Shown: positions 4,157 to 32,000 of the stretch, one piece after another | How positions within the stretch are numbered: position 1 is the stretch's first letter | Layout of the letters: every line of letters starts with the position of its first letter | Assembly (NCBI GenBank): GCA_027371715.1 | Contig: DAHXMM010000022.1 | Location: 1-32,000 of the forward strand | Length of the DNA stretch: 32,000 nt | Direction of reading: 5' to 3' | Origin: Elusimicrobiota bacterium | Lineage (GTDB): Bacteria; Elusimicrobiota; Elusimicrobia; UBA1565; UBA9628 | Program-made: the position numbers and the translations under genes | Notes under the pieces: model-generated | Seen by the model: the letters and a program-made list of their open reading frames with translations, nothing else | Databases searched by the model: none | What the model was told of the DNA's origin: nothing

Positions 4157-4164
4157 GATTTCCC

Positions 4165-4193
4165 TTGCAAATTTTCCGGGGGCCTGCTATAGT
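4165..4193 (+). promoter_or_regulatory. sigma70-like promoter candidate (TTGCAA - 17 nt - TATAGT)
   Basis: TTGCAA at 4165-4170, an exact 17-nt spacer, and TATAGT at 4188-4193. The ATG of the next ORF begins 7 nt after the -10 box (4200), which implies a leaderless or near-leaderless transcript. Confidence 0.45.
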
Positions 4194-4199
4194 TTAGGT

Positions 4200-6958: not shown

Positions 6959-6975
6959 TGAAAAAGGATGAGTCT

Positions 6976-7006
6976 AAAAAAGAAGGCCCCGGTCTCCCGG
7001 GGCCTT
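6976..7006 (-). terminator. rho-independent terminator candidate for the minus strand (downstream of the tRNA-like gene)
   Basis: Perfect 10-bp GC-rich stem: AAGGCCCCGG (6983-6992) and CCGGGGCCTT (6997-7006), with a TCTC loop. On the minus strand it is followed by C then TTTTTT (complement of A6 at 6976-6981). On the plus strand no U tract follows it. Confidence 0.55.
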
Positions 7007-7075
7007 GGATAGTTCAACGCTCGGCGTCTCTCACTTTTTATTATAACGCCGATATCTCGATTGTCAAGGGGTGTC

Positions 7076-7115
7076 GGATATCCCCGCCGCGTCTCTTACG
7101 GCGGCGGGGATGTCC
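7076..7115. repeat. 15-bp inverted repeat (strong hairpin) in the cusB-cusA spacer
   Basis: GGATATCCCCGCCGC (7076-7090) pairs with GCGGCGGGGATGTCC (7101-7115) around a 10-nt loop. The single imperfect position is a G-U wobble if read as plus-strand RNA, but an A-C mismatch as minus-strand RNA. Confidence 0.6.
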
Positions 7116-7122
7116 ATCGAGA

Positions 7123-7194
7123 TTGCGGGAGCGGGACTCGAACCCGCATCGGCCGTTTGAGAGACGCCCGTTCTATCGATTGAACTATCCCACA
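7123..7194 (-). tRNA. tRNA-like gene, candidate tRNA-Glu(CUC), with non-canonical features
   Basis: Hand-folded cloverleaf on the minus strand. Acceptor TGTGGGA/TCCCGCA (one G-U pair). U8 A9. D stem GTTC/GAAC. Anticodon arm GGCGT-CTCTCAA-ACGGC with U33 and anticodon CUC. 4-nt variable loop. T arm GCGGG-TTCGAGT-CCCGC. Discriminator A, no encoded CCA. Atypical points: U1-A72, a G-G mismatch at 28:42, and only one G in the D loop. Confidence 0.6.
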
Positions 7195-7250
7195 GTCTCT
7201 ACCTATCATACGGGCCAAGAGCCGAGAAAGTTCCATCCAGGAGCCGCTTC

Positions 7251-10200: not shown

Positions 10201-10457
10201 GACGACTCAATACCTTAAACGATCTCAAGGACGCGATTCACGACGGCGCGGCGAAAAGACTGCGGCCCAAGTTGATGACGGTTTCTTGCGCCTTCTTGGG
10301 ACTTTTGCCCGCGATGTTTGCTCACGGCGCTGGAGCCTCCATGATGAAAAGGATCGCCGCCCCCATGGTCGGCGGATTATTCACGTCCTTTCTGCTTGAA
10401 CTTCTCATCTACCCTGCGGTTTATCTTTTGTGGCGGAAAAATGAGATACAGGAATAA
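7251..10457 (+). CDS. cusA: heavy-metal efflux RND transporter, CusA/CzcA family (Cu/Ag type likely)
   Basis: 1068 aa with 12-TM RND architecture and an AGGAG SD upstream. Residues matching the CusA three-methionine cluster are present: ILYMPTT (M588), APLSMMETT (M638/639) and RIDMLSTG (M697). Confidence 0.92.
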   Translation: MISKIIEFSARNKFLVILLTLAASLGAFYAVQKMPLDALPDLSDTQVIVVSKWDQAPEVLEDQVTYPIVSALLGAPQVKAIRATNEFGISLVYVIFKDGTNLYWARSRVLEYLSKITAELPKGVKTEIGPDATSLGWVYQYALVDDSHTLDLPRLRALEDWQIRYQLQSVPGVAEVASIGGYQKEYQIKINPRALWSYGIPITRVLKAVAESNSERSGGTVEFSGREFMILGKGYLRGLKDIAQIPLGRDPKTGTPVLLKDVAILSLGPARRRGVADLNGLGDAVGGIVIMRSGENALNVIARVKAKIKEIAPSLPPGVRLVPVYDRSNLIHQSIRTLTETLAEEMLVVSLVILFFLWHFPSAIVPILTIPISIFLAFIPMSALGITTNIMSLSGIAISIGILVDGAIVEVENAYKRLEEWQASGRKGDFHEVRLKALSEVGPSVFFSLLVIAAAFLPIFALTGEEGRLFKPLAYSKTFAMALAAILAVTLDPAVRMLFTRMEGFNFKIPWIKKIADALLVGRYYPEEKHPVSQRLFKIYSPVVRWVLEKPKAVILSAIALLILSLPIFRSLGSEFMPPLNEGTILYMPTTLPGISITEAGRVLQIQDEILKSFPEVKTVYGKAGRADTSTDPAPLSMMETTVVLKPRKDWPNVSCFGGFWKCKSTYKQMISQMDQKLKIPGFPNIWTQPIRNRIDMLSTGMRTPVGIKIFGPHLSGIQDLGVQIEKTLSTVAGTREAVAERSAQGYYVNIHLNRRALARYNLSVDEANSVVAAALGGANLTTVIKGRERFPVNVRYAPDFRDNIEKIKETLIPISGGAQIPLAEIADIRKSLGPDMIRDENGELTGYVYVDLNTSNIGDYVQKAKAALQKSVSPPPGYRYEFTGQYRQMKKADQRLELIIPLALFLVILLLYFNTGSWMEAGIVLLAVPFSAIGAIWLLWILDYHLSVAVGVGFIALLGLDAETGIFMLLYLNLERKARASTGRLNTLNDLKDAIHDGAAKRLRPKLMTVSCAFLGLLPAMFAHGAGASMMKRIAAPMVGGLFTSFLLELLIYPAVYLLWRKNEIQE

Positions 10458-10490: not shown

Positions 10491-11147
10491 TCAATGTCCT
10501 TCCGCCAAAAGAAGCTCTCCCGCGTAAAGTCTTTTATTGTCGGAATTAAACTCATGCTTGACGTCAACCAAAAGCTTCTCCAGAGACAATATCTTCCAGC
10601 CCTGGCAATAATAGACGCCGGGACTCTTTTGGTTCATCTCCAAGGATAAAACAAAGTGATGGACGTCCTGGGTAATCTTAAAATCTTCCGAGGGGGAAAG
10701 ATAAAATGAACGCTGGGTTGTTTCCACATTTTTCCGATTAAACGTCTTGCATTCGAGATAATTACGGCGCTCGTTTTGGTCCACGAATTCCAAATCGGGA
10801 TAACCCGCCGACTTTGTTTTTCCATTTACTTGCGGCTTTCCCGCCTTCCTCGCCCCAGATTCGATGAGCGCCTTCTCCACAAAAGCTTCAATGGCATTGC
10901 CCACTTCATTGGGACGCCGACTTCTGATGCCCTCTTTATTGATATACCTTTTAAAGCTGTTTGAGCCGTCTTTTTCATCAGACGGCTTAAATGGAACCAC
11001 GCGATGGCCCGATAGAGATTCAATGACGAGCCGAAAGGGAACGTCCTTGAGAGGCTCAATCATATGTTTGACGATGGATTCGAGTCGCTGGACATAAACC
11101 GCGTCCGAGACGAGGCTTTCCCTATCCTTGGTCTTGGGATAATTCAC
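10491..11147 (-). CDS. type II restriction endonuclease candidate (PD-(D/E)xK fold)
   Basis: GYPDLEFVDQNERRNYLECKT gives P117-D118 ... E132-C133-K134, a classical PD-x13-ExK catalytic motif. The GTG start has AAGGAGG 4 nt upstream and overlaps the methyltransferase stop (GTGA). I recognise no other family. Confidence 0.65.
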   Translation of the reverse strand: MNYPKTKDRESLVSDAVYVQRLESIVKHMIEPLKDVPFRLVIESLSGHRVVPFKPSDEKDGSNSFKRYINKEGIRSRRPNEVGNAIEAFVEKALIESGARKAGKPQVNGKTKSAGYPDLEFVDQNERRNYLECKTFNRKNVETTQRSFYLSPSEDFKITQDVHHFVLSLEMNQKSPGVYYCQGWKILSLEKLLVDVKHEFNSDNKRLYAGELLLAEGH

Positions 11148-17432: not shown

Positions 17433-18176
17433 TCAAGGGCCGAAACCAAACCCCTTAAAAAGACTATCTTCCGATTGCGCGGCGGGAGCGGGAGTTTCTT
17501 TTTTCTTCTTCGGAGAAGCGGGAGAAGCCGCGGGCGGCAAGGTTCCCGGCAAGGGAGAAGCGGCAGAACCTCCGGACAAGCTTCGAACCGGCGCCACGAT
17601 CACTTTCCTGATTCCCTCGGCAAAAACAATCATCCCGGTTTTTTCCTCGTAATAAAGCCTGAAGGGACTTTGTTTCATCTGCGGCTCATAAGCTTTTCCG
17701 AGATTGGATTTTTCTTCCTCCCACCCTGGGTTATAGACCAATTTTCCCCTGACGTCTACAATGCCATCAACGATGGGCAGAGAAAAACGAATCCGATAAA
17801 ATCCGTTTGAATCGCTGACCCCCGGATCAAAAGAACTAACCGCCAAAGCTTTTTCGCCCGTGTCAAATTGATCTTGATTTTCCTGTCCCTCAGCCGAAGC
17901 CACCGCGCGAACAACCACTCCCTGAATCGGGTTATCCGCGTAATCGGTGATCACTCCCTGAATATAGCCATCCAAGAACTCACTTTTTTTCGGGAGAGAG
18001 AAGAAAACATAATCATTGACTCCCGTTAATTTCTCAGTAATGGAGAGATCCACCACACGTCCTTCGGCGAAATCTAAAACGACAATTTTGCGCGGAGCTC
18101 CTCCGCAACCCCAAAAGACAAGTCCAACCGCCAAGAAAAATAGCGCTAAATGGGCGCAGGTTTTTATTTTTTTCAT
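17433..18176 (-). CDS. lipoprotein with carboxypeptidase-regulatory-like beta-sandwich motif and a Pro/Ala/Lys-rich tail
   Basis: ATGA overlap with the upstream gene. Signal peptide plus lipobox (VFWGC). GVITDYADNPIQGVVVRAV...SDSNGFYRIRF resembles CarboxypepD_reg-type domains. The C-terminus is low complexity (PLPGTLPPAASPASPKKKKETPAPAA). Confidence 0.65.
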   Translation of the reverse strand: MKKIKTCAHLALFFLAVGLVFWGCGGAPRKIVVLDFAEGRVVDLSITEKLTGVNDYVFFSLPKKSEFLDGYIQGVITDYADNPIQGVVVRAVASAEGQENQDQFDTGEKALAVSSFDPGVSDSNGFYRIRFSLPIVDGIVDVRGKLVYNPGWEEEKSNLGKAYEPQMKQSPFRLYYEEKTGMIVFAEGIRKVIVAPVRSLSGGSAASPLPGTLPPAASPASPKKKKETPAPAAQSEDSLFKGFGFGP

Positions 18177-19315
18177 AAGAAAGAACGCCGGAAAACAATA
18201 GCCGCGATTAGAATCGGCAAGAGACTAAGGGAAAGCCACCACCAAGCCAAATTTTCAGAGTCGGAAAGAGGCGGCAATTGCTTAAACGCAAGCGCGTTTA
18301 ATTTAGTCCTTGAAACGCTCGAGTTGAGAACGGGAGAAAAAGAAACAAAGAAATTCCACTTCGGATTTAAATCGGAAGGAGTCTGAGAGCGCAAACTTTG
18401 ATAGACGCCCTTAACCTGGTCAAACAATGAAAAATCTAAAATCCGCCGGGAAACGGTCATCACAATTAAAACTGGAAATCGGCCGATTAAGGAAATATCC
18501 GAAAGGAGATGAGCCCCCAAGCCGTTTCCGACCTTATAAGATTGAGGCAAAGTTTCCCACGAACGCAAAAAAAACTTATTATTGACGTCTTCAGGGGAAG
18601 GAATTTTTCCAACCGGAGAAACAGCCGGGTCTCGCCCCTGAGAAACCGACGACGCATAGTTAGGGACAGTCCCTAATTCTTCTGTTGTTGGCTCCTGGTT
18701 TGTCTGAGATGGAAAAGCTAAATTCAGTAAACCGGTGGAATTGGGGACTGTCCCTAACTCTCCCCCGGACAAATGTCGTTTCGAGCGCTCCTGAGATTTT
18801 CCCTGCGACAAAAGCCGCCACAAATCATCGCTGATTTGGCGACCTTTTTCCAGCGATTTTTTTGCGCCGTTTTCCCAAGCCTTCAAGTTTTGGAGCGGTT
18901 TCTTAAGCTCGAGTTCTCGGCGCCGAATATTTTTTGATAAAGGAGCATTTTGACTCCGGGGCGAAAGAACGGAAGAACCGGGCGTCAAAACAGGCTCGAC
19001 GTTGTTGGCCAACGGATGAGTTTCAGGCGATTTCAAGGTTAAATTGGGAGAAACCGGCAACGCGAAAAAAACTCCCGAGGGAATTGTTTGAGGAAGAGCG
19101 GATGGAGAAAACCCCGGAGTTAAAGTCGGTGATATTCCAATATCCGAAGGTAAACCCGCATTTTGAGGCAAGGTCCCTAAATTATCGGCTCCCAAAAAAG
19201 CCATCGGCATAACGCCATTAGAGCCTACGATGTTCCGCGAAAAAGCTCCGGCATGGAGGTTTCCTTTAAAAAAACAAAGGGCCAAGACTATCAGCGCCGA
19301 CGTTTTTATGTTCAT
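18173..19315 (-). CDS. secreted Pro/Ser/Thr-rich protein with C-terminal TM helix and basic tail; function unknown
   Basis: N-terminal signal peptide (MNIKTSALIVLALCFFKGNLHA). Internal ELGTVPN repeat. The C-terminus is LAWWWLSLSLLPILIAAIVFRRSFL. The gene starts 9 nt after the giant gene's stop, and the AAGGA SD-like motif lies immediately 5' of its ATG. Confidence 0.6.
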   Translation of the reverse strand: MNIKTSALIVLALCFFKGNLHAGAFSRNIVGSNGVMPMAFLGADNLGTLPQNAGLPSDIGISPTLTPGFSPSALPQTIPSGVFFALPVSPNLTLKSPETHPLANNVEPVLTPGSSVLSPRSQNAPLSKNIRRRELELKKPLQNLKAWENGAKKSLEKGRQISDDLWRLLSQGKSQERSKRHLSGGELGTVPNSTGLLNLAFPSQTNQEPTTEELGTVPNYASSVSQGRDPAVSPVGKIPSPEDVNNKFFLRSWETLPQSYKVGNGLGAHLLSDISLIGRFPVLIVMTVSRRILDFSLFDQVKGVYQSLRSQTPSDLNPKWNFFVSFSPVLNSSVSRTKLNALAFKQLPPLSDSENLAWWWLSLSLLPILIAAIVFRRSFL

Positions 19316-19324
19316 TCCTTAGAA

Positions 19325-22300
19325 TTATAGAACATTCTTTCTCCGCTTTTTCTTCTTAAAAAGCGTTCCGAGAACTCCCGCCGCGGAGCCAAGGAAAAGC
19401 ATGATTTTAGCGGCATAGGATAAAATCTTATCTTTAAGCGAAATCGCCGCATGCGGAATAAAAGAAACCTGAAGGGCGGGTTCTAGTTTTTCCAAGCGGC
19501 GAATGTAACGCCGCCACCAAGAAACCTGGCGCGTCAAGGCCGCATCTCGCGCCCGGTCGGATTTGAGGCGAGATTCGACTTCCTGTTGTGAAAGGACCCG
19601 AATTTCCCGTCCATAAACGTCTTCATGAAGCCGATCCGCCGCGGCTTTGACGCTTGAGTCCTGGGCCGCAGTTTCCTTTCTCATGCGCTCAATTTCAAGT
19701 TGTTTTTTCTTAAGACTCGCCAGGTCCTTTTTTCTCAACGGGAGTTCTTTCTCTGTTTGATTGACGTATCCATGAACCTCTTTGGAATCGGATTGATACT
19801 CTTGCGCCCCGGCTTCAATATGAACCGTTTTCTGCGCGCGGTTGACCCAAATATCCTCGGGATTTCCCGACAAAACGATTTTCCCCGATCCATCAGCCCG
19901 CGGAGACAAGCCCACCTCCTTATCGCTTAAAGCTTTCGCCAAGGCTTCCTCGCCCACAGACCCTTCTTTTTTAGATTCCTCATAGGTTTTTCTCCGGCCC
20001 TGCATCTCGTTAATGACAAACTCAGACACTCCTCCGTTAAAATGAGCGAGGGTCCTCAAGCGCGCGGCATTAATGTCTTCCTGGTAATAGCGAAGGAGTC
20101 GCTCTAAAAACAGAGCGCCAAAATGAACATTCGCATCTTTATAACGTCCGCTTAAAGACGCTTCGCTGTCTCCGGGCATGAGAGTCGAACGCCCGACGCG
20201 CAAATCAGACGGGAATTGGCTTAAATCGTAGTAAGGAGTGACCGGGTCCGGAAGAAAGTTAAGCACATCCAAGGCCCCCGCGATATTGCGGAAAAACCCG
20301 TGGTGTTCCGTCTCTCCGCCTTCAGTCTTATACATCGCGACGCGCCCAAGATAATGCTGAAATCTTGGATCTCGCCCCGCCCACTCCACGGGGAAACCCA
20401 CGATTTCGCGCGGGACCTCCATGATCAAACTTCCCCAACGCCAAGGCATCACGCCCCAGTATTTTTTGAACGGAAGATGGGAGGAAACGTTTTGAGCGCT
20501 CTTTTCCAAATAGCGCTGATTCAAAAGAACGGGTAATTCATCGATTCCTTCCTTCGACAAACGAGCCTTAATTTCGAGGGCAATGCGCTTCGCATAATCT
20601 TCCGGGCTTTCACCCTGTTTGCTTGGCATATCTTTCTTAACCGCGGCGGAAACCTTGGTTATTTCCTCTTGGATTTGACCTTGAGTCTGCCCCTCCCGTC
20701 CCACCCAAACTTCATAATGACTGACGCGCAAACCAGGGTTGAGCGTTTTTGCCTTCGCGTTAAATATGTTTTTCTTGCCGTCGATCGTCTTTGACTTCAA
20801 TGTCCAGGACTTGGCGGCCTGATCCATTCCCGAAGAACTGGTATAGTATTGTCTTAAGCGCCCTTCTGAATCCATGACGGCGGCATAAATCGGCCCGCGC
20901 ACATAGACGTCGGCTCTTTGAGGCGACAAGCGATCGTTCAAGACGGAACGGCCGTAAACCGGGGAAGCTTGGGCATGAAGAACCGTTCCACGGGAATCCA
21001 ACCCCAAAATCAAATCGCGGCTGCGGTAAAGACTCCAAGTTTTCGAGCGCTCTTTAATGGTATTGGCCTCTTTCACTTGTTTCTTGGCGTCCGTAAACAC
21101 CGCTTTCTGGAGTTTCAAATTATCGCGAGCCGTATCCAATTTTTTGGATAAGAAGCTGACGCGTTTTTGAGCGTCTTTATACTGGCCGTTAGAAGATAAC
21201 TCCTTCTTGGTTTCTTCGCCTATCCGTTGAGCGTAGTTCGCCGCCAATTCCTTGTTTTTCCGCGGATACCTCTCGAGAACTTTCTCTTTGATGCTTCTCT
21301 CCACCTCGTTTTCGGCCCGCACGGCTTCCAGCATTATTTTCTGAGCTTCTTTTTCCTTTTTATCCGACTCTCCCAGATCTTTCGCGGCCTTAATGAGGCG
21401 AATCTGCGCTTCCTTAATCCCCCCATCCGCATCCGAGAACGCTTTTTTAGCCGCGTCGAAATCATCCCGGCTGAGATAAACGTCCGAAACTTCTCCTTTT
21501 TCATTTCTCGCGAAACCATATCCCGCTAATTTTAGCTCCGCGTATCCGGCCCGAAGTTCCGCTTGGCGCCTGGTCTCGAAGAAATCCATCAAATCTCCGG
21601 CTCCTTTTTTGGAAAGATAGACTCGACTGAAATCTCCCTTTACAGAAGAAGCCTTGAGAGATTCGAGAGTCTGGAACTTATCCGAGGGCAAAGCCGTTTT
21701 TCCGGTATAGACATAAATTTCGTATTGATCCGGCGACCTCGCCCAAGCCGCCAAGGCCGGCAACCGGTAATGCAAAAGCCCTGGGTTCTTAGAATTGAAA
21801 GCCTCGAAGAAAAGAACCTTTCCGTTGCTTAAAAGGCCTTGGGCCCCGAAAAGTTCTTGAACGGAATAACCCTTTTGGCCGTCCTCCGAGGCAAAATCAT
21901 ATTGACTCAGGCGTTCCGCCAAATTGATGACGCGAGAATCGTCCTTGACGCCGCTATTTGCTTCTAGTTTTTGCCGCTCGAAAGCGTCCGCTCCCCTGAC
22001 GAACTCAACTTTCATATTCGATTTAAGGAAATAGCGCCCACCCACATCGACGATTTGATCGTCCCCCTTATACGCGGGAGAGGCGCGTTTGGCGAGTTCC
22101 TCTTGAGTCAACCAACCCTCCACCGCCCACAAACGGCGGCCGTCCTTATCCACGCGGGTTTGGGCGTAGAGCGGATACAGTTTGGAACCGTGCTTAAGCC
22201 AATCGGCCCTCTTATTTTCCAATTCGGAGATTTTGAGGGCGACGGCGTTGATGGACTGCTCCGAGCGCCCTTCCCATCGTTCGGCAAAAAGACGGGATTT

Positions 22301-25300
22301 TTCAAGCATAATCAAGGCGTCCAAGGCGAGAATTCCGCGCCCGGATTCTTTGGAATCAATCTGGCGATCAAGGCTCTTGTGAACGTCATAGAGAGCGTCG
22401 AGCGTGCGAATGAGTTCGGCATTTCCTTGAACCTCTTTTAGGTCCAAGGTTCGGATTAAATCCTCGTCAAAAATCTGCTGGGCCTTGAGATAATCGTCCA
22501 AAAGCCCGTCTTTCAAGATAAAATCGTCGTTTTTCAAGGGCGAGGCGAAATAAGAATCAATCAACGCGGCCTTGGACAAATCTAATTGTTGATGATCCGC
22601 TTCAAGAGACTTAAACGCGGCTTCGGCTCTTGGAGAAACGGCGACCGCATTCCAATACGCATTGCGAAGTTCCAAGGCGGCCTGGGAATATTCAGTCCGT
22701 TTTTGCTCGCTTGAACCTAGCTCCCGCTCCAAATCTCGGCGCAAAAACCCAAGCTGCGGATCTTTATTTTCAATCTCGGTTTTTAACGCCGCAAGGCTGA
22801 AAATCAAAAGATTTCTCTTTCCGCGAGCGTCATTTTGGGCCAAAAGGCGAAGTCTTTCTTCCGATGAAAAATCTTCCGCCGTAACATCCTTGGAATCTCG
22901 AATGGCGGTGCGGTAAAGGCGTGCCACCGAATCGACGGAATCAATTAACTGCTGGGAAATTCCCAAACCGTGGAGATAGCGATCCTGTCGAATTATAAAA
23001 TTTGGATCTTCCATGCGGTCCGCCCAATATCCCAGGAGTCCGCGTTCGGAGGGATTTTTAGGCAAATTAAGATCGCCCGAAGCCCGTTGTTTTCCCAAAC
23101 TGAGATTTTTAAGCGAGAGAGCCGTATCGGAGGATTGGCTTTCCTTTCCCAGGGCTTTTAGTTCCGCGACTAAGGAAACGAAATTAGATTTTAAATCCGC
23201 CGACTGAACAATCAATTTTTCCTGGGCTTGAATTAAATTTTTCCGGGCGTCCAAAACGTCTTGATGAGCCTTGAGCGAACCGGATTCATGCGCGGCGGTC
23301 CAGTCCTTCTGTTTCAAATCGTCAATAGCCGCGGCCAACAAACGGCTGTCGGCTTGAACTTCTTTCATTCCGCCGGAAACGCGGGTCATTTGAGTATAAA
23401 GAACCATCTCTAGCTTCTCGAACTGCCCCTGGGCCTTGAGCTGTTCGCGAATGGAATCAGACAATATATTGGTCAACCCGCGTTCGATTTCCTGCGGGTC
23501 GGGGGCTTCCAAAAATCCGCCAAAAACAGGAGTTCCGCGGAAAATGCCGAAAGCCGCAATCGGCGTAATTCCTTGATAACTCATGTGTTCGGACAAAACA
23601 TCGGCCCGGATTTGATCCATGAAAACGTCCTTATCATGACTGGGCCCCAAAGCGTCCAAACCAAGGATTTTGGCAATGCGCGCTTTTCCCTCCGGAGAAG
23701 CAATCTCTTGAACCAAGCGAGGCTCCCCTCCGGAAAATTCAGCGCCCGAGGCTTCCGGAACCAGCTTCGACAGCAAACGCAAGCGATCCTCCGCGGTCTG
23801 TCCCTGAGCCTTTGAAAGCCCCAACAGCGCCCAAATTTCTTCCGCTTGAGAGAAGGTTTTTTGGCGAACGGAATCAATCATTCCCGTCCAATCGACCCCG
23901 GTTTCCTTGCTCTGATGCGATTGAACCCATTTGAGAAAACGGACATTTTCCGCGAAAGCGGCCAGCTCCGCGTCCGCCAACGCCGCCGCGCGCTCGCGCG
24001 CGATTTGATCTAAGCGGTCAGCCTTATCCTCGGATAATTTGGCCAAGGCAATCAAATCCGGTTCCGGGGTACCCTTGCTTTTAAGGCGCAACTCAATCCA
24101 CGGTTCCAAAAAGCCTCGGTTAATCGGAGTTTCATCGAGAGTTTGCCGCGCGTAAAAATAGCGCATGAACATCTCCGCCGGAGCCTTGTCAAAACCAGGC
24201 GCGGGAATGGGGGGCAAGGAATCCAAGCGGGGAACGCGAGCCACTTTTTCCTCTCCGTCAATCAGACGACGTCTGAGAGCGGCGAAGCTATCGGGCATCG
24301 AAACGGAATGAGCTGAACTCCCCGAATCAACTCCAAGACTGAGAAGAGATGCTTGAATGACCGCCTTTTGTCCTTTTAACTCTTCCACCTTGGCCAAGCT
24401 AAAAGGATCTCCCTTGGCGGACAAACTCTGAATCTCGGAATCGAGCATTTGAAGCCTGACCTGGTCGCGCGCGCGGAGATTCGCCAAATGAGAATCGAAC
24501 GAATCTTGTTGCCTTTCTTCCGTCAAAAGCCTGAGACGCGCCGCCATCACTTTATCGGCGCGCCCCGAATCTTCCTCCGAAAGCGCGCTAATCAGGCGTC
24601 CGATAGTCCGAGCCGTCAAGGAAATTGGATCAGCCGAGACGTCTTGTACTTTCAAGTTTTTATCCACCATCTTTTGATAGGCCTTGGCCACTTGGACGCG
24701 CGCCTGAAAAATGGTCTTTTGGGCCGCGACCAAATTCTGCTCCTTAAGCGTTTCTTGAAGCTGTTGGTAAGCCTTTTCCGGAGAGATGTCAATGGACAAG
24801 ACGGAATCCGCCGGTCGCCCCATCAAGACGTTGAGCGCCGAATGAGCCTCGTCGTTGGTTAAAACCATTTGAGCGCGCGACAATTTCGCGTTAAAAATTT
24901 CCTTTTTAATTTGGCTGACTTTCGCACGATCGCCGGAGGACTCAGCCCGGGACAATTCCCTTTGAAGCGCGGGAAGCGCCTGTTGGTCGATTTGAGCGAT
25001 GGCCGATTGCGCGGCCTTGGCCTCGACGATATCCTGATACATTTGAAGGGCCGTCTCGACTTTGAGCTTGGACTCCAAGGCCCCGTAATAGGCGGACTGC
25101 CCCTTGTCGGCCTTGACTTGCAGTTCTTTAAGTTCTTCCGGCTGAAAGCGGGCTCCTGGAATCGGCAGAATCGGAAATCCGGTAAAGCCGAAAGAAGGCA
25201 AAAACCCGGTGCCGGTCGCGGTCAAATCCACTCCGATCATCAAATTAATCCAAAATTTTTGAGTGACATGATTGTCGGCTTTCGCCAATGCCTCAAACTC

Positions 25301-28300
25301 TTCTTGATGAAGAGCCAAGGCTTCCAAGGATGAGTTCTGAAACGCGGTTTGAATGGCCCCGCTTAAATCCGAAACGCTCATCGGCGGCGCCATGGAATGA
25401 GATTTTCCTCCCACCGCCTCATCCATCGCGGCCCAAGCTCCGGCGGAAGCGGCCTGTGATTGAGAATTGACGGTCGCCCGAGCGTTCAAATTCCATAGGT
25501 TGATGGCTTGTCTCAATTCGCTTCTTGAAATTAAACCGTTGCGATAGGCTTTAATAGCGAATTCTAGTTCGCTGCTGGTCTGAGGAAGAGCCGCGGTCAT
25601 TTCCCCCGCCGTCTGTCCCCAGACGTCGGCTTCACGGCGTTCATTGCTTGCCAACAGACGGTATTGGGAATGGATGTCCTCCATTTCCTTGATATCGGCC
25701 TGGCTTTTGAGCAAATAACTCTTGTTTTTATCTTTTGAGGATGGGTCATAAAAAGGAAGCCTTAAGGTTCCGCCCATGCCGAAAATCTGCCCTGCCATCA
25801 AGTCCTGGATTTGAGTTCCGATTCCGAAGGTAAATTGATCGACAAAGGGAATCCAATCCATGATGTTGAAGCGGTCTTCGCCAATACGATCTTTTAGAGA
25901 TTTTTTATCCAAGGACCCAAGAATCTTTTTGAGGCGGTCGGGAGCGGCCACGAGGGAATGAATCTCCTTGACTAAGTTTTGAACGTCGGCGAGATTTAAG
26001 TCGTCAAACGGAGTCGGAGAAGACGGGTTTTTCCCGGCCATGATATTGTAGCGGACCCGCGCCTCGCTTAATTTCTCAGATGCCTCCGCCATCTGCGCCT
26101 GGGCCTTTCCCTTTTCAATGACGGAAGAAGCGTTTTGGAGCAAAAACGCCGCGCGCTGAACGGCAACCCGCGCCTTGACGATTTGAAGAGCGCTCTCTTC
26201 CCAGTCCTTGGTCAATTGAACCAAGCGAGACTGAAGCAAAAGACCGTTTTTATAAAGAGAAACGACTTTATTGTCTAAAAGCCCCTTTTGCGTCTTGGTC
26301 AAAGTCACCATAGTCTCGGTCCCGCTCATGAAACCTCCGGTGGCGGCCAGTTCCGCCGGGTCGTTGGAAACGGGGCCCGAGACAAAGCCGGCGTCTCCCA
26401 CCACCTTGACGTTGTCTAAAATCGCGCCCGCCGAACGCAAGTCCTTGATGTCGTGGTCCAAGGTTCCGATTTTCTGTTCAATGAGCCTTCTACCCACATC
26501 CTTGGCGAAAACCGCTTTAAGCTCGTTGAGATCTTTTTGGCCTTTTTGGGGTTTAAGAAAAGCCCCCATGCGCTTTTGATAGCCCTTGAGCGCTTTCCCA
26601 CCGTTTAAATCATCCGCGGCGCTGCGGGTCACTTCATTCCATAATTGAGAAAGACTGGCCGAGGTATTAAACATCAAGGACAAGCGGTTGTTATAGCCGA
26701 CAAACGGAGAACCGTATCCAACCGACACCTGCGTTCGGTTGGTCAGTTGCTTGCCGATCTGCGCATAATAAGCGTCGGCGGGCCCCAGCATTTGCCCCGT
26801 CGCGCTAAAAACAATTCCATTTTGGGGAAGCTGCACCGACAACTGATCAATGGCGATGTTATACTGCTGTCCCAACTCCCCGGTCGCGGTGTTGGAGATT
26901 CGAACCAAATCCACCGGCCTTCCCGAACTGTCCTGACCGCGAATCGTAAATCCCTTTAAAATCGTCGTGCCCAGGGTTTGCTGCGTAATATCGTAAGTAC
27001 CGGCGTAATTGGCGTAATAAAGGTCAACGGTAAACGGATTACTATCATCCTTAGAAACGACTCCCGATTGTTTAAGAAGAGAAGCCACGTCGAATGTCGG
27101 CCCGATTTTGGTCTCATAAAAATTCGCGCTTTTTCCGTGCGCGGCGATATCGAAGGTTTGGTTCAGACTCGGGTCAAGGCCCGTGAAGTCGAGATTGGCG
27201 GTCTCAAAAAATTGCCGCGGATCTTTCGCGAACAAAGCCTGCTGGTCGGCGTTTAAGCTCATGACCGGAGTCAATTGAATGGAGGTTTTGGCGTTTCCTC
27301 CGTAATAGTACGGTTGATTGGCGGAATTTTGCGCCGCCGCATCTCCAAAGCCCGTCAAACCGACGTAAAGTTTTCCATTCATTAAAAGCATCGCGTAATC
27401 ATTAAAGAGAAGAAGGCGGCTTTCATTGGCTTGGGACGCAAACGACATATTCGGGGGAACGTCCAGAATGTCGTGATGGATAATCGCCTCGAAATAATTG
27501 ACGTTATTTTTGCGCAAAGTCTCGACTTGAACGCCGACGCCCTTGTCTCCCCAAGGCGCGTTCGAGGCCCCGCCGGTTTCCGGCGGGGAATAGGTGTCGT
27601 AAGCCATGACGCTTAAATTACTTCCCATCACATGGGCGACGTTACCCAAGGTCACTTGATTGGTCGAACTCAAGCCGTAAGGAACTCCAAATCCTGTTTG
27701 ATAAACCAGATAAAAACCGTCCGCGGAATCCCCCAAATTCATGACCTGCGCTCCGGGGATGAGTTGTGCGATGTTTTGGGGATTGGCGAGAATGCTTTGC
27801 CCCAAGGCCCCGATGTCGGCCGAGGAGGCATTGGCTCCGCCGGACAAACTTGAAAGGATGTTGTTGACAAAATCGGGAAAATTCGATTTTTTAATCACCA
27901 AAGCCGAAGCCCCGGAGGATGAATTGAGTCCCATGCCCCAGCCGGAATCGCTCAGATGAAGGGAATCAAATTCCTGCTTAATCTGATTGGGAACGCGCGC
28001 CCATTCTTCATCCGTTAAACTTAAGCGCAAGTTGATGAGCTCTTTTTGTTTATCCCCGATTAAATCCATATCCGCTCTCAAAATGCGGTCGGCGCGGGAT
28101 AGATTCTCTTTGAGCAAGGTCCACTTATGATTGGCCTCAAGAACCTTGCGGGTGTCATCCTGAATCTGGGAAATCGCATGCGAGGTTTGGTGTAGCGCGC
28201 TGTCGTAAGGGCTATTGAGTTGTCCCATCCATGACAAAAGTTCGGATTTCGTGCTATTCAAACTGCTCATCGTGTTTTGAAGCGCCGTCATCATCGAATT

Positions 28301-31300
28301 CATCGCCGTCAAATCGCCCTGATCAACGGTGACCCCCGAGCCGTAAACCTGATTAGCCATGGCCTGATAATAGGTGGCGAGGAGGTTTACCGTCCCTAAA
28401 GACCCGGGATCGTATTGACTAATCTTGATATTGTAAAAATTGATTCCCTCTTGGAGAACGGACTGCAAAGAATTGAGCATCGCGATTTGATTGGCGTAAA
28501 CCGTCGCGGTTGGGGGGCTATTGCCACCTGAGTTGATGTAAGCCTCGTCCTGCTTTAATTGCGCTTGAGCGCTGTTTAAAGCGGCGGTTGCATCATTTAA
28601 GAATTTTTCAGCTTGGGGAATCTCGGTCGCGAGTTCCTGCTGGGAGCTCTGAACCGTCGAAAAGGAATAGAGAAAGCGCGCGATTGAGAAAGAAATCGAA
28701 GGAGAATTGGCGCTGCTTCCGGATGACGGCGCCAAGATTTTGGCCGCGTCCAAGGCCAAAAGGGCCAACTGTTGAGCGTTAGAAACGGTCGGAGACGGCT
28801 GATGACCGGTTTGAACGGCGAGACCGCCCCCGCCGCCCACATTAATTGAAGACGCTGAGCCCGCTTGGGCCGCGATATTTTTCAGCTCGGAAGCCAAACC
28901 GGTTAAATTCCCGTTGTTAGTCACGGAGAGAGAATAAATCTGATTATAGCCCGCTTGACTCGCCGCGACATTGGTCGGCAATTGATAGGACGAAAGATTG
29001 TATTTCCCGCCCGACAAGGTTTGGATTTTCGTTAGGATTTGGTTAAGTTGCGCATCTTGATCGTTGATTTCCTTGACGCGCTGATCCATTTCAGTCGTGT
29101 AAAGGGTAATTTTTTTCGGGAGGCTGTATGGCCCGCCGCCGGGATAATTACTGTCCTTCAAATAATCTACGGTCTCATTCCCATTAAAATTCGGGTCTTT
29201 TCTCTCGTTGACCTGAGTCAGATTCGTTGAAACCGTCTGTTGAAGATTGGTGAAATTGGTCTGCCAAGATTGCAAACTCGACAAACTGCTGGCGGTGTTT
29301 CCGGAACTGCCGCCTAAAGAGATCAGCCCCCAAGGAATGGTTTTATCGTTGAGTTGTTGAGTTTGGGTAATCAGAGAATTTTCCGCGCTAAAAAGCTCTT
29401 GATAAGCTCCATTGGAAGACACCTGCTGAATGGAAGACTCTTGATAGGGAATGAGCGTGTTTTCCAAGGCGTTTTGAATGTTGTTCAGAGGCGAGATAAT
29501 GTCGTTTTGAAGCAAATTTTCCTTGCGGTTAATAAGCGCCTGCACCGCGTTGGTCGGGGGATTGGCATTGGCATTGGGATATTGGGCCACGAAAGCCTGA
29601 TCGGCCCCAACATCGTTGATGATATTTTGCACCATGTTGACGGCCTGCTTCATGGCGGTCTGGGCTTGGGGAACGGTACCTCGAAGCGCGCTTTGAATGG
29701 TCGTCACGGTCGTCTGGGCCTCGCTTCCTTGAATGACCAGCCAAGCCGCCTGCGGCAAGAGAGAAGCGATTTTCACCAAATCCAGGGAAGCCTGAAAAGC
29801 CTGGGGTGTTCCGTTATTGGGTATCTGTGCGTTTTGAAGAGCCGTTCCATAATTTTGAACCGCGGTTTGGAGTTGGGTCAGAGTCAAACCCGAAAGCCGG
29901 GGCAAGCTCGGCCCTCCAGCCTGACTGATTTGGTTGGCCATTTGATCCATTTGAGAGGTAATGGAGTTAATGGATGATTGCGCTTGGCTCAAGGTTTGGC
30001 TCGCTTGGGCTTCCCAAACCGGCAAAGACTGAGGATAAGAACGCCCAAATTCATCGGTCACCATCGTCTGATTATTGGGGTCTAACATCGCCGCGACCGA
30101 GTTAAGGTCCTTTTGAAAAGTATTGAGTTGCCCTTCCCAGTAAGACTTTCGCGCGCTTAAAATTTCGCTAAAGCTCATCGAGTTGGAAATGCCCGGGCCG
30201 CCCGGAACGTCTTTAATAATGACTGGCCAGGCTTGAGTAGGCGCCGTCTTAATTTCGCTGAGGCCATTCTGCGCTGATTGAAGATTGGTCTGGACCTCGG
30301 TCAAGATATTTTTAAATTCCTTGAGCGAAAATGCCGAGGGATTGTTGGGATTTCCGTTCGTACGCCATTGAGACACCTGTCCCAGTTCCTGCAAACGCAG
30401 TTGAAACTTCGCCTCCAAAGCCTGCGCCTCGGAATCAAAACTTCCGCTCGTAACTCCTTCATGAGAGGCAATGGTCGCCATAACCGAGGGAAGCGCGCCT
30501 TTGACGGAAGTGAAAACTTGGACCGCGGAAGAAGCTTCGCTAAAATCGGAAGAGAGTTGATTTTGTTGGGTTTGATCGGCCTGGGTCTGCTGAGTCGCTT
30601 CCTGCTGCCATTGCGGAAGATTAGACTGCGCCTGTTGAGCTGCCGCTTGGTTTTGTTGCGACAAGGTCTGGGACTGGTCTATTTTCTGGATGTTGGTATT
30701 CAAAAGACCTTCCATCCCGCTGATCGCGTTTTCCGCCGCGTTAATTTCGCGAAGGCCTAGAGCGAAATCCATGACCGCCGAAACCTGGGAAAGGCCTTGA
30801 ATAAAATTCATCATATCCTGCCCGTTCCGGCGATTATTCAGAGCGCTCTCCCGCGCCTTGGAAACGACTTCAAGCACTTTTCCAGTCGCGTCCCGCATTT
30901 TCATCTGGGCCGCGGCATTGGTTCTGAGAGTTCTAATCTCCTTCACCAAGTTTTCGATTTTATGATCCACCTTCAAATCTTCGGGGGAAAGGGGACGTTC
31001 GCTCGGGACGTTTCTCCCCACCTTGCGGTCCAGATTGCTCAATACGGACTTGATCATTCCAGGACGAATTTCCTGATCCTCGGCATAACCGATGCGATTC
31101 TCCGGGCCTCTGCGTTTTTTTGCATCCATCGAAGACAGATCTTTCAGTTTTTGCTTCAATTCGTGAAGATGTTGGTCTGAATTTGAGGCAGGACGGCTTA
31201 AATCATGGTTTTCTGAAAGCTTTGAACGGACATAACGCTCGTTTTGAGCCTGTCGTAATTTGGCCAACCGCGCTCGATAGGCCTTGATTTCACCCGGGGT

Positions 31301-31963
31301 CAAAGGCCGGTTTTGAGTTTTGAGCGCCGCCTCGTCTTTATGAACCGAGGCCAAATCTTTTTGAAGCTTCAGTTCTTGCGCGCGCGCGGCTTTCATCTCG
31401 TCCTTAAAATTTCCCGCCGATTTCTCAAGTTCTTTAAGGCGAGCGTCTATTTCCTTGGGAGTTTTTTTGTAAAGCTCGGAGTCAAACGGAATCGGCTTAC
31501 TGGGAGCGGAAGCCGCCGCTACCACGCCCGCGGCCGCAGCGCCGGCGGTACGGGAGTTGAGAGTGTGCATGACCGCGTCCGACAAGTTAAATCCCAAGGC
31601 CGATTCAACTTTGTAGAGAAGGACATTCCCCCAGGTAATCGCTCCACCAAAAGGAATCACGCTTTGACCTTTAGGGGCTTCAAACGCCGAGAAAAGGCCG
31701 TGAAAGCCGTGAAAGTCGTGCCCCGTAACCGCATGCCAAGAAGGAGTCAGGCTTGTATCAATCTGGGCTCCGTAGGAAAGAATTCCTTGAATCTCGGAAC
31801 CGACGGTCAAAAGCCCCAGGAAAAACTTAAGGTCCTGCCAAATGAAGAATTTCCAAAACTCGCGCGCGAAAACGGCCGAGGCCATGGCCTGGGTCCAACT
31901 TACGGAATCTTCGGGATGTTCGGCTTCAAGACGCCGGCGATGCCAATCCACCGACTGGGGCAA
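19325..31963 (-). CDS. giant multi-domain envelope/surface protein (at least 4212 aa), cysteine-free, with embedded TolC-like module and C-terminal membrane anchor; 5' end probably outside window
   Basis: Single uninterrupted 12.6-kb frame. The tracked start is a TTG, but the same frame stays open for 12 more sense codons (ILNTFILSTIFT) to the window edge. Composition and segment motifs are described in the findings. The antisense ORFs inside it look like shadow ORFs. Confidence 0.85.
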   Translation of the reverse strand: MPQSVDWHRRRLEAEHPEDSVSWTQAMASAVFAREFWKFFIWQDLKFFLGLLTVGSEIQGILSYGAQIDTSLTPSWHAVTGHDFHGFHGLFSAFEAPKGQSVIPFGGAITWGNVLLYKVESALGFNLSDAVMHTLNSRTAGAAAAGVVAAASAPSKPIPFDSELYKKTPKEIDARLKELEKSAGNFKDEMKAARAQELKLQKDLASVHKDEAALKTQNRPLTPGEIKAYRARLAKLRQAQNERYVRSKLSENHDLSRPASNSDQHLHELKQKLKDLSSMDAKKRRGPENRIGYAEDQEIRPGMIKSVLSNLDRKVGRNVPSERPLSPEDLKVDHKIENLVKEIRTLRTNAAAQMKMRDATGKVLEVVSKARESALNNRRNGQDMMNFIQGLSQVSAVMDFALGLREINAAENAISGMEGLLNTNIQKIDQSQTLSQQNQAAAQQAQSNLPQWQQEATQQTQADQTQQNQLSSDFSEASSAVQVFTSVKGALPSVMATIASHEGVTSGSFDSEAQALEAKFQLRLQELGQVSQWRTNGNPNNPSAFSLKEFKNILTEVQTNLQSAQNGLSEIKTAPTQAWPVIIKDVPGGPGISNSMSFSEILSARKSYWEGQLNTFQKDLNSVAAMLDPNNQTMVTDEFGRSYPQSLPVWEAQASQTLSQAQSSINSITSQMDQMANQISQAGGPSLPRLSGLTLTQLQTAVQNYGTALQNAQIPNNGTPQAFQASLDLVKIASLLPQAAWLVIQGSEAQTTVTTIQSALRGTVPQAQTAMKQAVNMVQNIINDVGADQAFVAQYPNANANPPTNAVQALINRKENLLQNDIISPLNNIQNALENTLIPYQESSIQQVSSNGAYQELFSAENSLITQTQQLNDKTIPWGLISLGGSSGNTASSLSSLQSWQTNFTNLQQTVSTNLTQVNERKDPNFNGNETVDYLKDSNYPGGGPYSLPKKITLYTTEMDQRVKEINDQDAQLNQILTKIQTLSGGKYNLSSYQLPTNVAASQAGYNQIYSLSVTNNGNLTGLASELKNIAAQAGSASSINVGGGGGLAVQTGHQPSPTVSNAQQLALLALDAAKILAPSSGSSANSPSISFSIARFLYSFSTVQSSQQELATEIPQAEKFLNDATAALNSAQAQLKQDEAYINSGGNSPPTATVYANQIAMLNSLQSVLQEGINFYNIKISQYDPGSLGTVNLLATYYQAMANQVYGSGVTVDQGDLTAMNSMMTALQNTMSSLNSTKSELLSWMGQLNSPYDSALHQTSHAISQIQDDTRKVLEANHKWTLLKENLSRADRILRADMDLIGDKQKELINLRLSLTDEEWARVPNQIKQEFDSLHLSDSGWGMGLNSSSGASALVIKKSNFPDFVNNILSSLSGGANASSADIGALGQSILANPQNIAQLIPGAQVMNLGDSADGFYLVYQTGFGVPYGLSSTNQVTLGNVAHVMGSNLSVMAYDTYSPPETGGASNAPWGDKGVGVQVETLRKNNVNYFEAIIHHDILDVPPNMSFASQANESRLLLFNDYAMLLMNGKLYVGLTGFGDAAAQNSANQPYYYGGNAKTSIQLTPVMSLNADQQALFAKDPRQFFETANLDFTGLDPSLNQTFDIAAHGKSANFYETKIGPTFDVASLLKQSGVVSKDDSNPFTVDLYYANYAGTYDITQQTLGTTILKGFTIRGQDSSGRPVDLVRISNTATGELGQQYNIAIDQLSVQLPQNGIVFSATGQMLGPADAYYAQIGKQLTNRTQVSVGYGSPFVGYNNRLSLMFNTSASLSQLWNEVTRSAADDLNGGKALKGYQKRMGAFLKPQKGQKDLNELKAVFAKDVGRRLIEQKIGTLDHDIKDLRSAGAILDNVKVVGDAGFVSGPVSNDPAELAATGGFMSGTETMVTLTKTQKGLLDNKVVSLYKNGLLLQSRLVQLTKDWEESALQIVKARVAVQRAAFLLQNASSVIEKGKAQAQMAEASEKLSEARVRYNIMAGKNPSSPTPFDDLNLADVQNLVKEIHSLVAAPDRLKKILGSLDKKSLKDRIGEDRFNIMDWIPFVDQFTFGIGTQIQDLMAGQIFGMGGTLRLPFYDPSSKDKNKSYLLKSQADIKEMEDIHSQYRLLASNERREADVWGQTAGEMTAALPQTSSELEFAIKAYRNGLISRSELRQAINLWNLNARATVNSQSQAASAGAWAAMDEAVGGKSHSMAPPMSVSDLSGAIQTAFQNSSLEALALHQEEFEALAKADNHVTQKFWINLMIGVDLTATGTGFLPSFGFTGFPILPIPGARFQPEELKELQVKADKGQSAYYGALESKLKVETALQMYQDIVEAKAAQSAIAQIDQQALPALQRELSRAESSGDRAKVSQIKKEIFNAKLSRAQMVLTNDEAHSALNVLMGRPADSVLSIDISPEKAYQQLQETLKEQNLVAAQKTIFQARVQVAKAYQKMVDKNLKVQDVSADPISLTARTIGRLISALSEEDSGRADKVMAARLRLLTEERQQDSFDSHLANLRARDQVRLQMLDSEIQSLSAKGDPFSLAKVEELKGQKAVIQASLLSLGVDSGSSAHSVSMPDSFAALRRRLIDGEEKVARVPRLDSLPPIPAPGFDKAPAEMFMRYFYARQTLDETPINRGFLEPWIELRLKSKGTPEPDLIALAKLSEDKADRLDQIARERAAALADAELAAFAENVRFLKWVQSHQSKETGVDWTGMIDSVRQKTFSQAEEIWALLGLSKAQGQTAEDRLRLLSKLVPEASGAEFSGGEPRLVQEIASPEGKARIAKILGLDALGPSHDKDVFMDQIRADVLSEHMSYQGITPIAAFGIFRGTPVFGGFLEAPDPQEIERGLTNILSDSIREQLKAQGQFEKLEMVLYTQMTRVSGGMKEVQADSRLLAAAIDDLKQKDWTAAHESGSLKAHQDVLDARKNLIQAQEKLIVQSADLKSNFVSLVAELKALGKESQSSDTALSLKNLSLGKQRASGDLNLPKNPSERGLLGYWADRMEDPNFIIRQDRYLHGLGISQQLIDSVDSVARLYRTAIRDSKDVTAEDFSSEERLRLLAQNDARGKRNLLIFSLAALKTEIENKDPQLGFLRRDLERELGSSEQKRTEYSQAALELRNAYWNAVAVSPRAEAAFKSLEADHQQLDLSKAALIDSYFASPLKNDDFILKDGLLDDYLKAQQIFDEDLIRTLDLKEVQGNAELIRTLDALYDVHKSLDRQIDSKESGRGILALDALIMLEKSRLFAERWEGRSEQSINAVALKISELENKRADWLKHGSKLYPLYAQTRVDKDGRRLWAVEGWLTQEELAKRASPAYKGDDQIVDVGGRYFLKSNMKVEFVRGADAFERQKLEANSGVKDDSRVINLAERLSQYDFASEDGQKGYSVQELFGAQGLLSNGKVLFFEAFNSKNPGLLHYRLPALAAWARSPDQYEIYVYTGKTALPSDKFQTLESLKASSVKGDFSRVYLSKKGAGDLMDFFETRRQAELRAGYAELKLAGYGFARNEKGEVSDVYLSRDDFDAAKKAFSDADGGIKEAQIRLIKAAKDLGESDKKEKEAQKIMLEAVRAENEVERSIKEKVLERYPRKNKELAANYAQRIGEETKKELSSNGQYKDAQKRVSFLSKKLDTARDNLKLQKAVFTDAKKQVKEANTIKERSKTWSLYRSRDLILGLDSRGTVLHAQASPVYGRSVLNDRLSPQRADVYVRGPIYAAVMDSEGRLRQYYTSSSGMDQAAKSWTLKSKTIDGKKNIFNAKAKTLNPGLRVSHYEVWVGREGQTQGQIQEEITKVSAAVKKDMPSKQGESPEDYAKRIALEIKARLSKEGIDELPVLLNQRYLEKSAQNVSSHLPFKKYWGVMPWRWGSLIMEVPREIVGFPVEWAGRDPRFQHYLGRVAMYKTEGGETEHHGFFRNIAGALDVLNFLPDPVTPYYDLSQFPSDLRVGRSTLMPGDSEASLSGRYKDANVHFGALFLERLLRYYQEDINAARLRTLAHFNGGVSEFVINEMQGRRKTYEESKKEGSVGEEALAKALSDKEVGLSPRADGSGKIVLSGNPEDIWVNRAQKTVHIEAGAQEYQSDSKEVHGYVNQTEKELPLRKKDLASLKKKQLEIERMRKETAAQDSSVKAAADRLHEDVYGREIRVLSQQEVESRLKSDRARDAALTRQVSWWRRYIRRLEKLEPALQVSFIPHAAISLKDKILSYAAKIMLFLGSAAGVLGTLFKKKKRRKNVL

Positions 31964-32000
31964 GGTAAAAATGGTCGAGAGAATAAAAGTATTTAATATG

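Follow-up and report, generated by a model that had tools for sequence, protein, structure and literature searches.

The window analysed here is a stretch of 32,000 nucleotides from an Elusimicrobiota bacterium (positions 1 to 32,000 of the forward strand of contig DAHXMM010000022.1, assembly GCA_027371715.1), and its minus strand carries one giant gene whose product is predicted to contain six copies of the structural unit of TolC-type channels in a single chain. The open reading frame (ORF) spans 19325..32000 (-) as a single frame (frame 2 of the reverse complement) of 4224 sense codons, with a lone stop at its end (19325-19327), and is still open at base 32000. The ORF listing places it at 19325..31963, with 4212 residues counted from the first TTG. 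An initial annotation had described one minus-strand frame of 4212 codons devoid of cysteine, and both observations are reproduced. There are no cysteines in the 4224 codons of the ORF, where ~120 would be expected from base composition alone. The remaining 17 ORFs in the window contain 54 cysteines among 6330 residues (0.85%), and at that rate their complete lack in the giant ORF has a P of ~2e-16.

The giant gene is real and its ORF is reproducible across independent assemblies. An exact look-up of the downstream gene d1 (380 residues) matched 11 contigs. Three contigs, each from a different sample, match the window gaplessly over 21 kb at 99.87-99.98% identity. Two of the three (176 kb and 34 kb) have the giant gene annotated with a product length of 4727 residues, and contig ena:ERZ27237420:k141_292746 provides the full-length sequence. 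Thus, the window misses 503 N-terminal residues, and the true start lies beyond base 32000, as had been suspected. We regard as negligible the chance that the ORF is an artefact, be it an assembly chimera, a fusion of neighbouring genes or a non-coding open frame. The GC content is uniform along the gene and equal to that of its neighbours, the frame is intact in three independent assemblies that are 99.9% identical over 21 kb, and ~40 collinear full-length homologues (30-38% identity) show purifying selection along the whole length, while nothing was found in favour of an artefact. Some homologous loci are indeed fragmented, but fragmentation is the opposite type of error. At the assembly level an artefact is excluded, and the chimera that the initial annotation had raised against its own proposal is not borne out. 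In two long-read assemblies, a nanopore contig (L001) and a complete genome (CP096137.1, L011), the homologous giant gene is split into several ORFs, probably through frameshift errors or because these copies are pseudogenes. Many database entries are labelled 'partial' because the gene is broken in assemblies such as these.

A scan of one genome per species recovered 50 related loci, all in metagenome-assembled genomes (MAGs) of Elusimicrobiota, with ORFs of 3.8-5.8 thousand residues that contain 0-8 cysteines each (0.048% overall). An exhaustive HMMER profile search of 1.84 billion representative proteins gave only 106 matches. Some 40 of these are full-length giants of 3.3-5.9 thousand residues with ~0.05% cysteine, essentially all from Elusimicrobiota. 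The homologues align collinearly with more than 4000 residues of the window protein (30-38% identity by BLAST), the closest relatives (loci L003 and L004) reach 77% identity over the full length, and conservation is present in every 50-residue bin of the protein. Together, the collinearity, the conservation and the narrow set of matches point to a family of fixed architecture and not to a mosaic or a chimera. The term 'mosaic' used previously therefore has to be dropped, and it also sits badly with the uniform GC content and with a repeat search of the giant protein that found no tandem repeats. To judge from these searches, the family is narrow and conserved almost only in Elusimicrobiota. 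A word-indexed search with the C-terminal alignment (A4) returned no matches, probably because it was swamped by coiled-coil words, and one with the A3 alignment returned only 9 fragments.

Known families offer little orientation. Pfam and NCBIfam gave no match to the window protein, either whole or cut into ten tiles. Family profiles A2, A3 and A5 matched nothing among all PDB sequences, profiles A4 and A9 gave coiled-coil noise only, and Pfam, run on the member sequences of A4, A3 and A9, likewise gave noise only. The earlier failure to match the protein to any characterised system thus stands. In databases the family members are named 'hypothetical protein' or, rarely, 'TolC family protein', and full-text literature searches found no description of the giant-protein family or of a single-chain outer-membrane factor (OMF).

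It is the middle of the protein for which structure models suggest a fold. The structural statements that follow are drawn from AlphaFold2 summaries (secondary structure, the predicted local distance difference test, pLDDT, and the predicted template-modelling score, pTM) and from Foldseek scores. A first model (residues 1400-2450, built on an alignment of 12 sequences) is poor overall (pLDDT 49), yet has confident long helices. Its top 43 PDB matches are all OMFs (among them TolC, CusC, SilC, OprM, OprN, VceC, CmeC and MtrE), with E down to 1e-8 and template-modelling scores relative to the target (TMt) of 0.5-0.56. A second model (residues 1820-3019, on an alignment from the full-length relatives of the exhaustive search) has a pLDDT of 71.8 and a pTM of 0.68, and its top 40 PDB matches are again all OMFs (E 2e-5, TMt up to 0.63). 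It shows six consecutive units, in each of which a beta-hairpin is followed by a helix of 46-68 residues and then by a return helix (21-41 residues). The significant PDB matches of both models are OMFs only, at TMt 0.56-0.63 over ~390-416 of ~420 target residues. Klebsiella TolC, for example, is aligned over 416 of its 421 residues (TMt 0.63), and the score relative to the query (TMq) of 0.25 reflects the roughly quarter to third of model 2 that is covered.

Each TolC protomer contributes two such units to a trimeric channel (PMC8277102), so that six units in one chain equal a whole trimer. The hairpin of the sixth unit is conserved (FTPVAAFGxFRGxxVxGxFLEAPDP; conservation 0.56 at residues 2801-2850, with invariant columns), and by eye an (L/M)xG motif closes five of the six units, as it does both halves of TolC. 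The models show six OMF-like units, and we hold this more confidently than we hold closure of a barrel or function as a conduit. The segment map drawn by eye in the initial annotation was largely right for the Q/N/S/T-rich and beta-rich regions. Its TolC-like repeats, placed at 1880-2440, turn out to be real repeats with limits that were too narrow: they extend over ~1835-2949, about twice as far, and make up six units.

Further links to the OMFs come from the sequences of relatives. P0068, a distant family member from Elusimicrobia (3776 residues; family profile E 1e-54) that NCBI names 'TolC family protein', scores above the gathering cut-off of the Pfam family OEP (PF02321; E 1.4e-6, 28.7 bits vs a cut-off of 22), and the stretch matched maps to residues 2214-2369 of the window protein, that is to unit U3. 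OEP is also the commonest weak Pfam match among family members (7 of 35, all sub-threshold, best E 9e-4). The units resemble one another in hhalign comparisons (U1 and U3, E 1.2e-4 over 143 columns; U1 and U2, 0.006; U2 and U4, 0.023), and this fits old internal repeats, in a pattern as might be expected from a multiplied two-unit protomer.

The two ends of the protein bear on where this core resides. At the N-terminus, the part outside the window can be read from the close homologues L003 and L004, which have a signal peptide, a linker rich in proline, a conserved domain (FRFPYHLFDxFxFGYFRQ) and three to four hydrophobic helices. The helix ILNTFILSTIFT at the window edge is the last of this hydrophobic cluster, as an alignment shows with L003, L004 and P0011, in which the cluster lies at residues ~430-520 of the full protein. 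In close homologues ~400 residues separate the signal peptide from the transmembrane (TM) cluster. Conservation peaks (0.60) just downstream, at residues 101-150 of the window protein. At the other end, residues 4050-4224 gave PDB matches of coiled-coil type only, and the aromatic-rich TM helix with its R/K tail is kept throughout the long subfamily. A shorter paralogous subfamily of ~3.86 thousand residues (L027, L028, L030, L031, L032, L039, L042 and others) has a signal peptide only, without the N-terminal TM cluster or the C-terminal TM helix. Long and short forms co-occur in at least six MAGs, for example in palsa_1176 (L005 and L027). The export signals, the anchors at both ends and the family-wide depletion of cysteine together suggest that the ~4100 residues between the anchors lie outside the cytoplasm. 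The initial annotation had likewise argued for an exported envelope protein and had noted the C-terminal TM helix and the KKKKRRKNVL tail. The former is supported here, and the latter two are present.

Table 1. Position of the giant gene, its parts and selected other genes in the 32,000-nucleotide window. Residues are numbered along the 4224-codon frame; E and H ranges follow the numbering of model 2.
Feature	Position (nt)	Strand	Residues	Description
Giant ORF	19325..32000	-		4224 codons and stop; 5' end cut by the window edge; full gene 4727 residues
N-terminal end in window	31550..31999	-	1-150	last helix of the TM cluster, ILNTFILSTIFTLP, then conserved hydrophobic/amphipathic domain with PFGGAITWGNVLL motif
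N-terminal arm	27815..31552	-	150-1395	presumably helical; charged stretch (150-400), then Q/N/S/T-rich low-charge stretch
Beta-rich domain	26600..27817	-	1395-1800	~400 residues; motifs PYYYGG, KDPR, NLDFTG
TolC/OMF-like core	23120..26542	-	1820-2960	six predicted units; AlphaFold2 and Foldseek
U1	26039..26497	-	1835-1987	E45-54, E70-82, H86-136, H141-168
U2	25409..25837	-	2055-2197	hairpin, then RLPxYDP motif; E236-242, E252-265, H269-334, H340-378
U3	24824..25366	-	2212-2392	aligns to the P0068 stretch recognised by Pfam as OEP
U4	24338..24781	-	2407-2554	E633-636, H642-655, H662-710, H713-735; helices confident
U5	23825..24178	-	2608-2725	E789-800, E806-819, H827-877, H886-906
U6	23153..23566	-	2812-2949	E993-1001, E1004-1013, H1040-1085, H1090-1130
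C-terminal arm	20000..23122	-	2960-4000	helical stretch, then mixed alpha/beta regions
C-terminal end	19328..19852	-	4050-4224	coiled coil, TM helix (19358-19432), basic tail KKKKRRKNVL (19328-19357)
d1	18173..19315	-		exported low-complexity protein, 380 residues; start lies 9 nt past the stop codon of the giant gene
d2	17433..18176	-		putative lipoprotein, 247 residues; overlaps d1 by 4 nt
CusCBA-type set	4602..10457	+		OEP 4602-5855; HlyD-type adaptor with HMBD 5852-6958; 99-residue ORF 6955-7254; AcrB-family pump 7251-10457

Between the anchors, the TolC-like core is flanked by segments that resemble nothing in Pfam or the PDB (Table 1). The N-terminal arm is conserved and collinear across the family, and its profile (A9) found no known family in either database, coiled-coil noise aside. 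Within it, residues 400-1350 consist of 38% Q/N/S/T and only 13% charged residues. In high-GC homologues A/R/E/L occupy the same positions, and the Q/N/S/T richness is therefore a composition specific to the lineage. The beta-rich domain is the best conserved part of the protein (63% mean column identity in A3). Model 1 predicts in it, at low confidence, ~20 strands (residues ~1430-1780), and hydrophobicity alternates along them. The domain is without a match in Pfam or the PDB. The C-terminal arm (searched as residues 2960-4185) gave nothing beyond coiled-coil noise in the same databases, and contains a highly conserved core at residues 3838-3960 (nt 20120-20488; GRDPRQxHYLGR...EGGxTEHHGFF...LPDPV...DPSQFP) that could be a binding or catalytic site.

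The beta-rich domain is common to some giant proteins of Omnitrophota (P0100, P0102 and P0105), and giants of that phylum have been proposed to be cell-surface proteins (bioRxiv 10.1101/2023.11.21.568195). It is conceivable, then, that the window protein is a cell-surface fibre, an adhesin or a contact-dependent apparatus that displays most of its chain outside the cell, with the beta-rich domain and the TolC-like part translocating it much as an autotransporter translocates itself. The lack of cysteine and the flagellin-like, Q/N/S/T-rich composition of residues 400-1350 would suit such a role. However, that composition is the lineage-specific bias just described, Pfam and the repeat search found no adhesin, Ig-like, RTX or beta-helix repeats, and inner-membrane anchors at both ends are hard to reconcile with external display. 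We consider a surface apparatus improbable. Of the functions proposed in the initial annotation, an envelope-spanning or secretion-related scaffold fits the present data, whereas a surface fibre or adhesin does not, given the missing adhesin repeats and the anchoring of both ends.

Two of the proteins from Candidatus Omnitrophota are of note in themselves. P0100 combines the beta-rich domain with SecA_DEAD, M23 peptidase and LysM domains. P0102 has 6932 residues, and its C-terminal part resembles GT48 glucan synthase, by eye only.

The giant gene heads a packed run of minus-strand genes comprising d1, d2, a class V aminotransferase gene, MnmA and a small lipoprotein gene. The C-terminus of d1, a tryptophan-rich TM helix and a basic tail, matches that of the giant protein in type, and this ending recurs in d1-type proteins (LAWWWLSLSLLPILIAAIVFRRSFL; PLWWAWLVLPALAAAAYRAF). 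Judged from these sequences, the ending that the giant protein and d1 have in common may be a shared sorting or anchoring signal. The d1 protein is 45% identical in L003/L004 and evolves fast, and d1-like genes lie directly downstream of the giant gene in L021 (18177-19376), L051 (18617-19876) and L011. By tblastn, synteny of d1 and d2 is detectable in the closest relatives only, and d2 is conserved in those only. The idea that the giant gene travels with two downstream exported genes thus holds for the closest relatives, with a d1-like gene recurring elsewhere, but not for the family as a whole.

Other neighbours recur at Elusimicrobiota loci, L001 among them. Immediately upstream of the giant gene in L005, L023, L025, L040 and L044 is a protein of ~300 residues with Y1_Tnp and a DnaA_C-type helix-turn-helix (HTH). 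Downstream in L007, L008, L013, L016, L020 and L025 are a Cache-HAMP-PAS histidine kinase and an exported protein of LysM/FecR/glucodextranase-B-like type. In L002-L004, a gene just upstream of the giant one (2727-4331, +) encodes a protein of 534 residues with a signal peptide, many TM helices and no Pfam match. It shares 33 nt with the start of the giant ORF, and its equivalent in our organism would lie just past the window edge.

Elsewhere in the window, 9 kb from the giant gene, is an ordinary and separate CusCBA-type efflux set for heavy metals, with a pump of the resistance-nodulation-division (RND) class. As this set includes its own OMF, the organism also has canonical trimeric OMFs. 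The region 10491-12481 (-) looks, from its gene content, like a type II restriction-modification pair, in which an N6_N4 DNA methyltransferase gene (11144-12481) overlaps an ORF of 218 residues (10491-11147), which is annotated on the contig as PF27324 MjaV. On the plus strand, 1549-3384 encodes a 611-residue fusion of DCC1-like thiol-disulfide oxidoreductase and lipase maturation factor (LMF1) domains, and 4104-4538 encodes 144 residues with 8 cysteines and no Pfam match.

What might such a protein do? We see about an even chance that it is a Sec-exported envelope protein that is anchored in the inner membrane at both ends and carries a single-chain, six-repeat TolC-like core, probably forming an outer-membrane channel-tunnel tethered by the arms. 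In this scenario the protein would be exported by Sec, and the N-terminal TM cluster would anchor the chain in the inner membrane. Outside the cytoplasm there would follow, in order, a helical arm of 1250 residues, the beta-rich domain of 400 residues, the six TolC/OMF units (residues ~1835-2949) and an arm of ~1200 residues with its conserved globular core, before the single C-terminal TM helix would return the chain to the inner membrane and leave the basic tail in the cytoplasm. The one chain would fold into a complete channel-tunnel of 12 strands and 12 helices in the outer membrane, and the two arms (~1200 residues each) would tie this channel covalently to the inner membrane, producing a duct and a tether in one piece across the envelope. 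The periplasmic and outer-membrane location, the closure of a barrel by a single chain, the function as conduit or tether and the transport of a substrate are all steps that we infer. A more daring proposal is that one polypeptide, with a pseudo-trimeric TolC-type tunnel, arms and anchors, constitutes a whole trans-envelope machine that replaces the three proteins of efflux or type I secretion and that has its beta module in common with the Omnitrophota giants. This we offer tentatively, as a possibility that falls well short of even.

Several results weigh against a channel of this kind. The closure of the barrel is read solely from the unit count, the pTM and the TM-scores, and AlphaFold2 predicted a monomer, which is compatible with oligomers as well. 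The hairpin of U4 is the sole hairpin that is not confidently predicted (pLDDT ~37), so that there may be 10 strands rather than 12, and at a pLDDT below 50 a membrane barrel and a soluble beta structure are indistinguishable for the beta-rich domain. The window protein gave no OEP match, whole or tiled, even at E up to 10. There were no ordinary TolC proteins among the 106 matches in 1.84 billion representatives, and the family profiles found no OMF among PDB sequences. Comparison by hhalign was not significant either for the TolC-like profile with the window's own CusC or for the C-terminal profile with the window's CusB-like membrane-fusion adaptor. No adaptor and no partner of the ATP-binding cassette (ABC), RND or major facilitator superfamily (MFS) type is encoded beside the giant gene, in the window or at the other loci. 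Finally, basic residues flank the N-terminal TM cluster on both sides, which leaves its topology ambiguous.

The main alternative, with which some of these observations would be at home, is that the protein serves as a structural tether or spacer instead of a channel. Here, the helical arms would set the distance between inner and outer membrane, nothing would be transported, and the OMF-like units would insert in the outer membrane or dock to it, perhaps in oligomeric form or in a pair with the shorter paralogue. The absence of pump genes nearby would then be expected, as would anchors at both ends and very long helical arms in a protein in which no enzymatic or transporter domain was found. 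The second, anchor-free short paralogue present in at least six genomes would permit hetero-oligomers, but that only six genomes visibly have both forms counts against a long-short heterodimer. Six units, however, are just as many as a closed TolC-type barrel requires, Pfam found no S-layer homology (SLH), OmpA-like or other peptidoglycan-binding domain, and all characterised proteins of the OMF fold are exit ducts (PMC8277102). A purely structural role is thus possible, though we would not call it probable.

The tether scenario can be likened to SlpA/OmpM or to the Lpp tether, except that it would link the outer membrane to the inner one. In the SlpA/OmpM tethers of Deinococcus-Thermus and Negativicutes, an SLH domain binds peptidoglycan and a long coiled-coil stalk is joined to a porin-type barrel. 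The giant protein would resemble them in joining a long coiled-coil stalk to an outer-membrane beta module, with a role in envelope architecture. It differs in that its predicted anchors are inner-membrane helices and its putative outer-membrane module is TolC-like, and Pfam detected neither an SLH domain nor any other domain that binds peptidoglycan, be it in the window protein or at the N-termini of its homologues.

A channel-tunnel tethered by its own arms would have its closest counterparts among the OMFs and the systems that use them. In TolC, OprM, CusC, VceC, CmeC and MtrE, as in the giant protein, the unit combines a beta-hairpin with a helix of ~50-68 residues and a return helix that is shorter, and two adjacent units of the giant superpose on the whole TolC protomer (TMt 0.63). 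The repeated beta-hairpin, long antiparallel helix and return helix of the OMF fold are present in its AlphaFold2 models. In contrast to known OMFs, which have ~420-500 residues and two units and trimerise, it has six units in one chain of 4727 residues, where an OMF would be a two-unit protomer of ~450 residues whose trimer makes a duct of 12 strands and 12 helices, as well as its own inner-membrane anchors and a beta-rich domain of 400 residues fused upstream. OMFs work with a periplasmic adaptor and an inner-membrane transporter, which often have neighbouring genes; the giant gene has neither alongside it. The geometry proposed is that of tripartite efflux pumps and type I secretion systems, in which long helical elements join an outer-membrane duct to the inner membrane across the periplasm. 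However, tripartite pumps consist of three separate proteins with an energised transporter (RND, ABC or MFS), whereas the giant is one polypeptide, in which Pfam and the comparison with the adaptor revealed no recognisable transporter, ATPase or membrane-fusion domain.

The giant proteins described in Omnitrophota by West-Roberts et al. are likewise membrane-associated, poorly annotated and from related uncultured bacteria. Those of the Archaeovorin and Dockerin types are rich in TM helices and combine SecA-DEAD domains with carbohydrate-active or peptidase ones (bioRxiv 10.1101/2023.11.21.568195). The window protein shows none of these features, Pfam found no SecA-DEAD, carbohydrate-active or peptidase domains in it, and the text of that study does not mention TolC. 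The giant adhesins of RTX type and of type I secretion systems, finally, carry a secretion signal at the C-terminus and tandem repeats of the Ig-like or RTX nonapeptide kind. Unlike them, the giant protein ends in a TM helix with a basic tail, and it contains no tandem repeats and no Pfam repeat families.

The equivalent of a three-subunit TolC channel in one chain, as the models predict here, has not been described before. The OMF fold occurs in this family in an unprecedented architecture that is single-chain, giant and self-anchored, and ~75% of the chain is uncharacterised. Every TolC-type duct characterised so far is a homotrimer whose protomers have two repeats each, and it has to recruit its adaptor and its pump as separate proteins. 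A natural version with six diverged repeats on one chain would, if true, be an evolutionary counter-example that arose by gene triplication and fusion, and since its six units are free to differ, it would provide a natural template for the design of asymmetric channels. For metagenomics, the case illustrates that giant ORFs labelled 'hypothetical' in MAGs can be resolved by segment-wise modelling with alignments from their own family. About three quarters of the protein (both arms, the beta-rich domain and the C-terminal core) match nothing known and point to unexplored envelope biology. Should the proposed architecture prove true, it would offer a clue to the way in which uncultured, deep-branching diderm bacteria link their two membranes.

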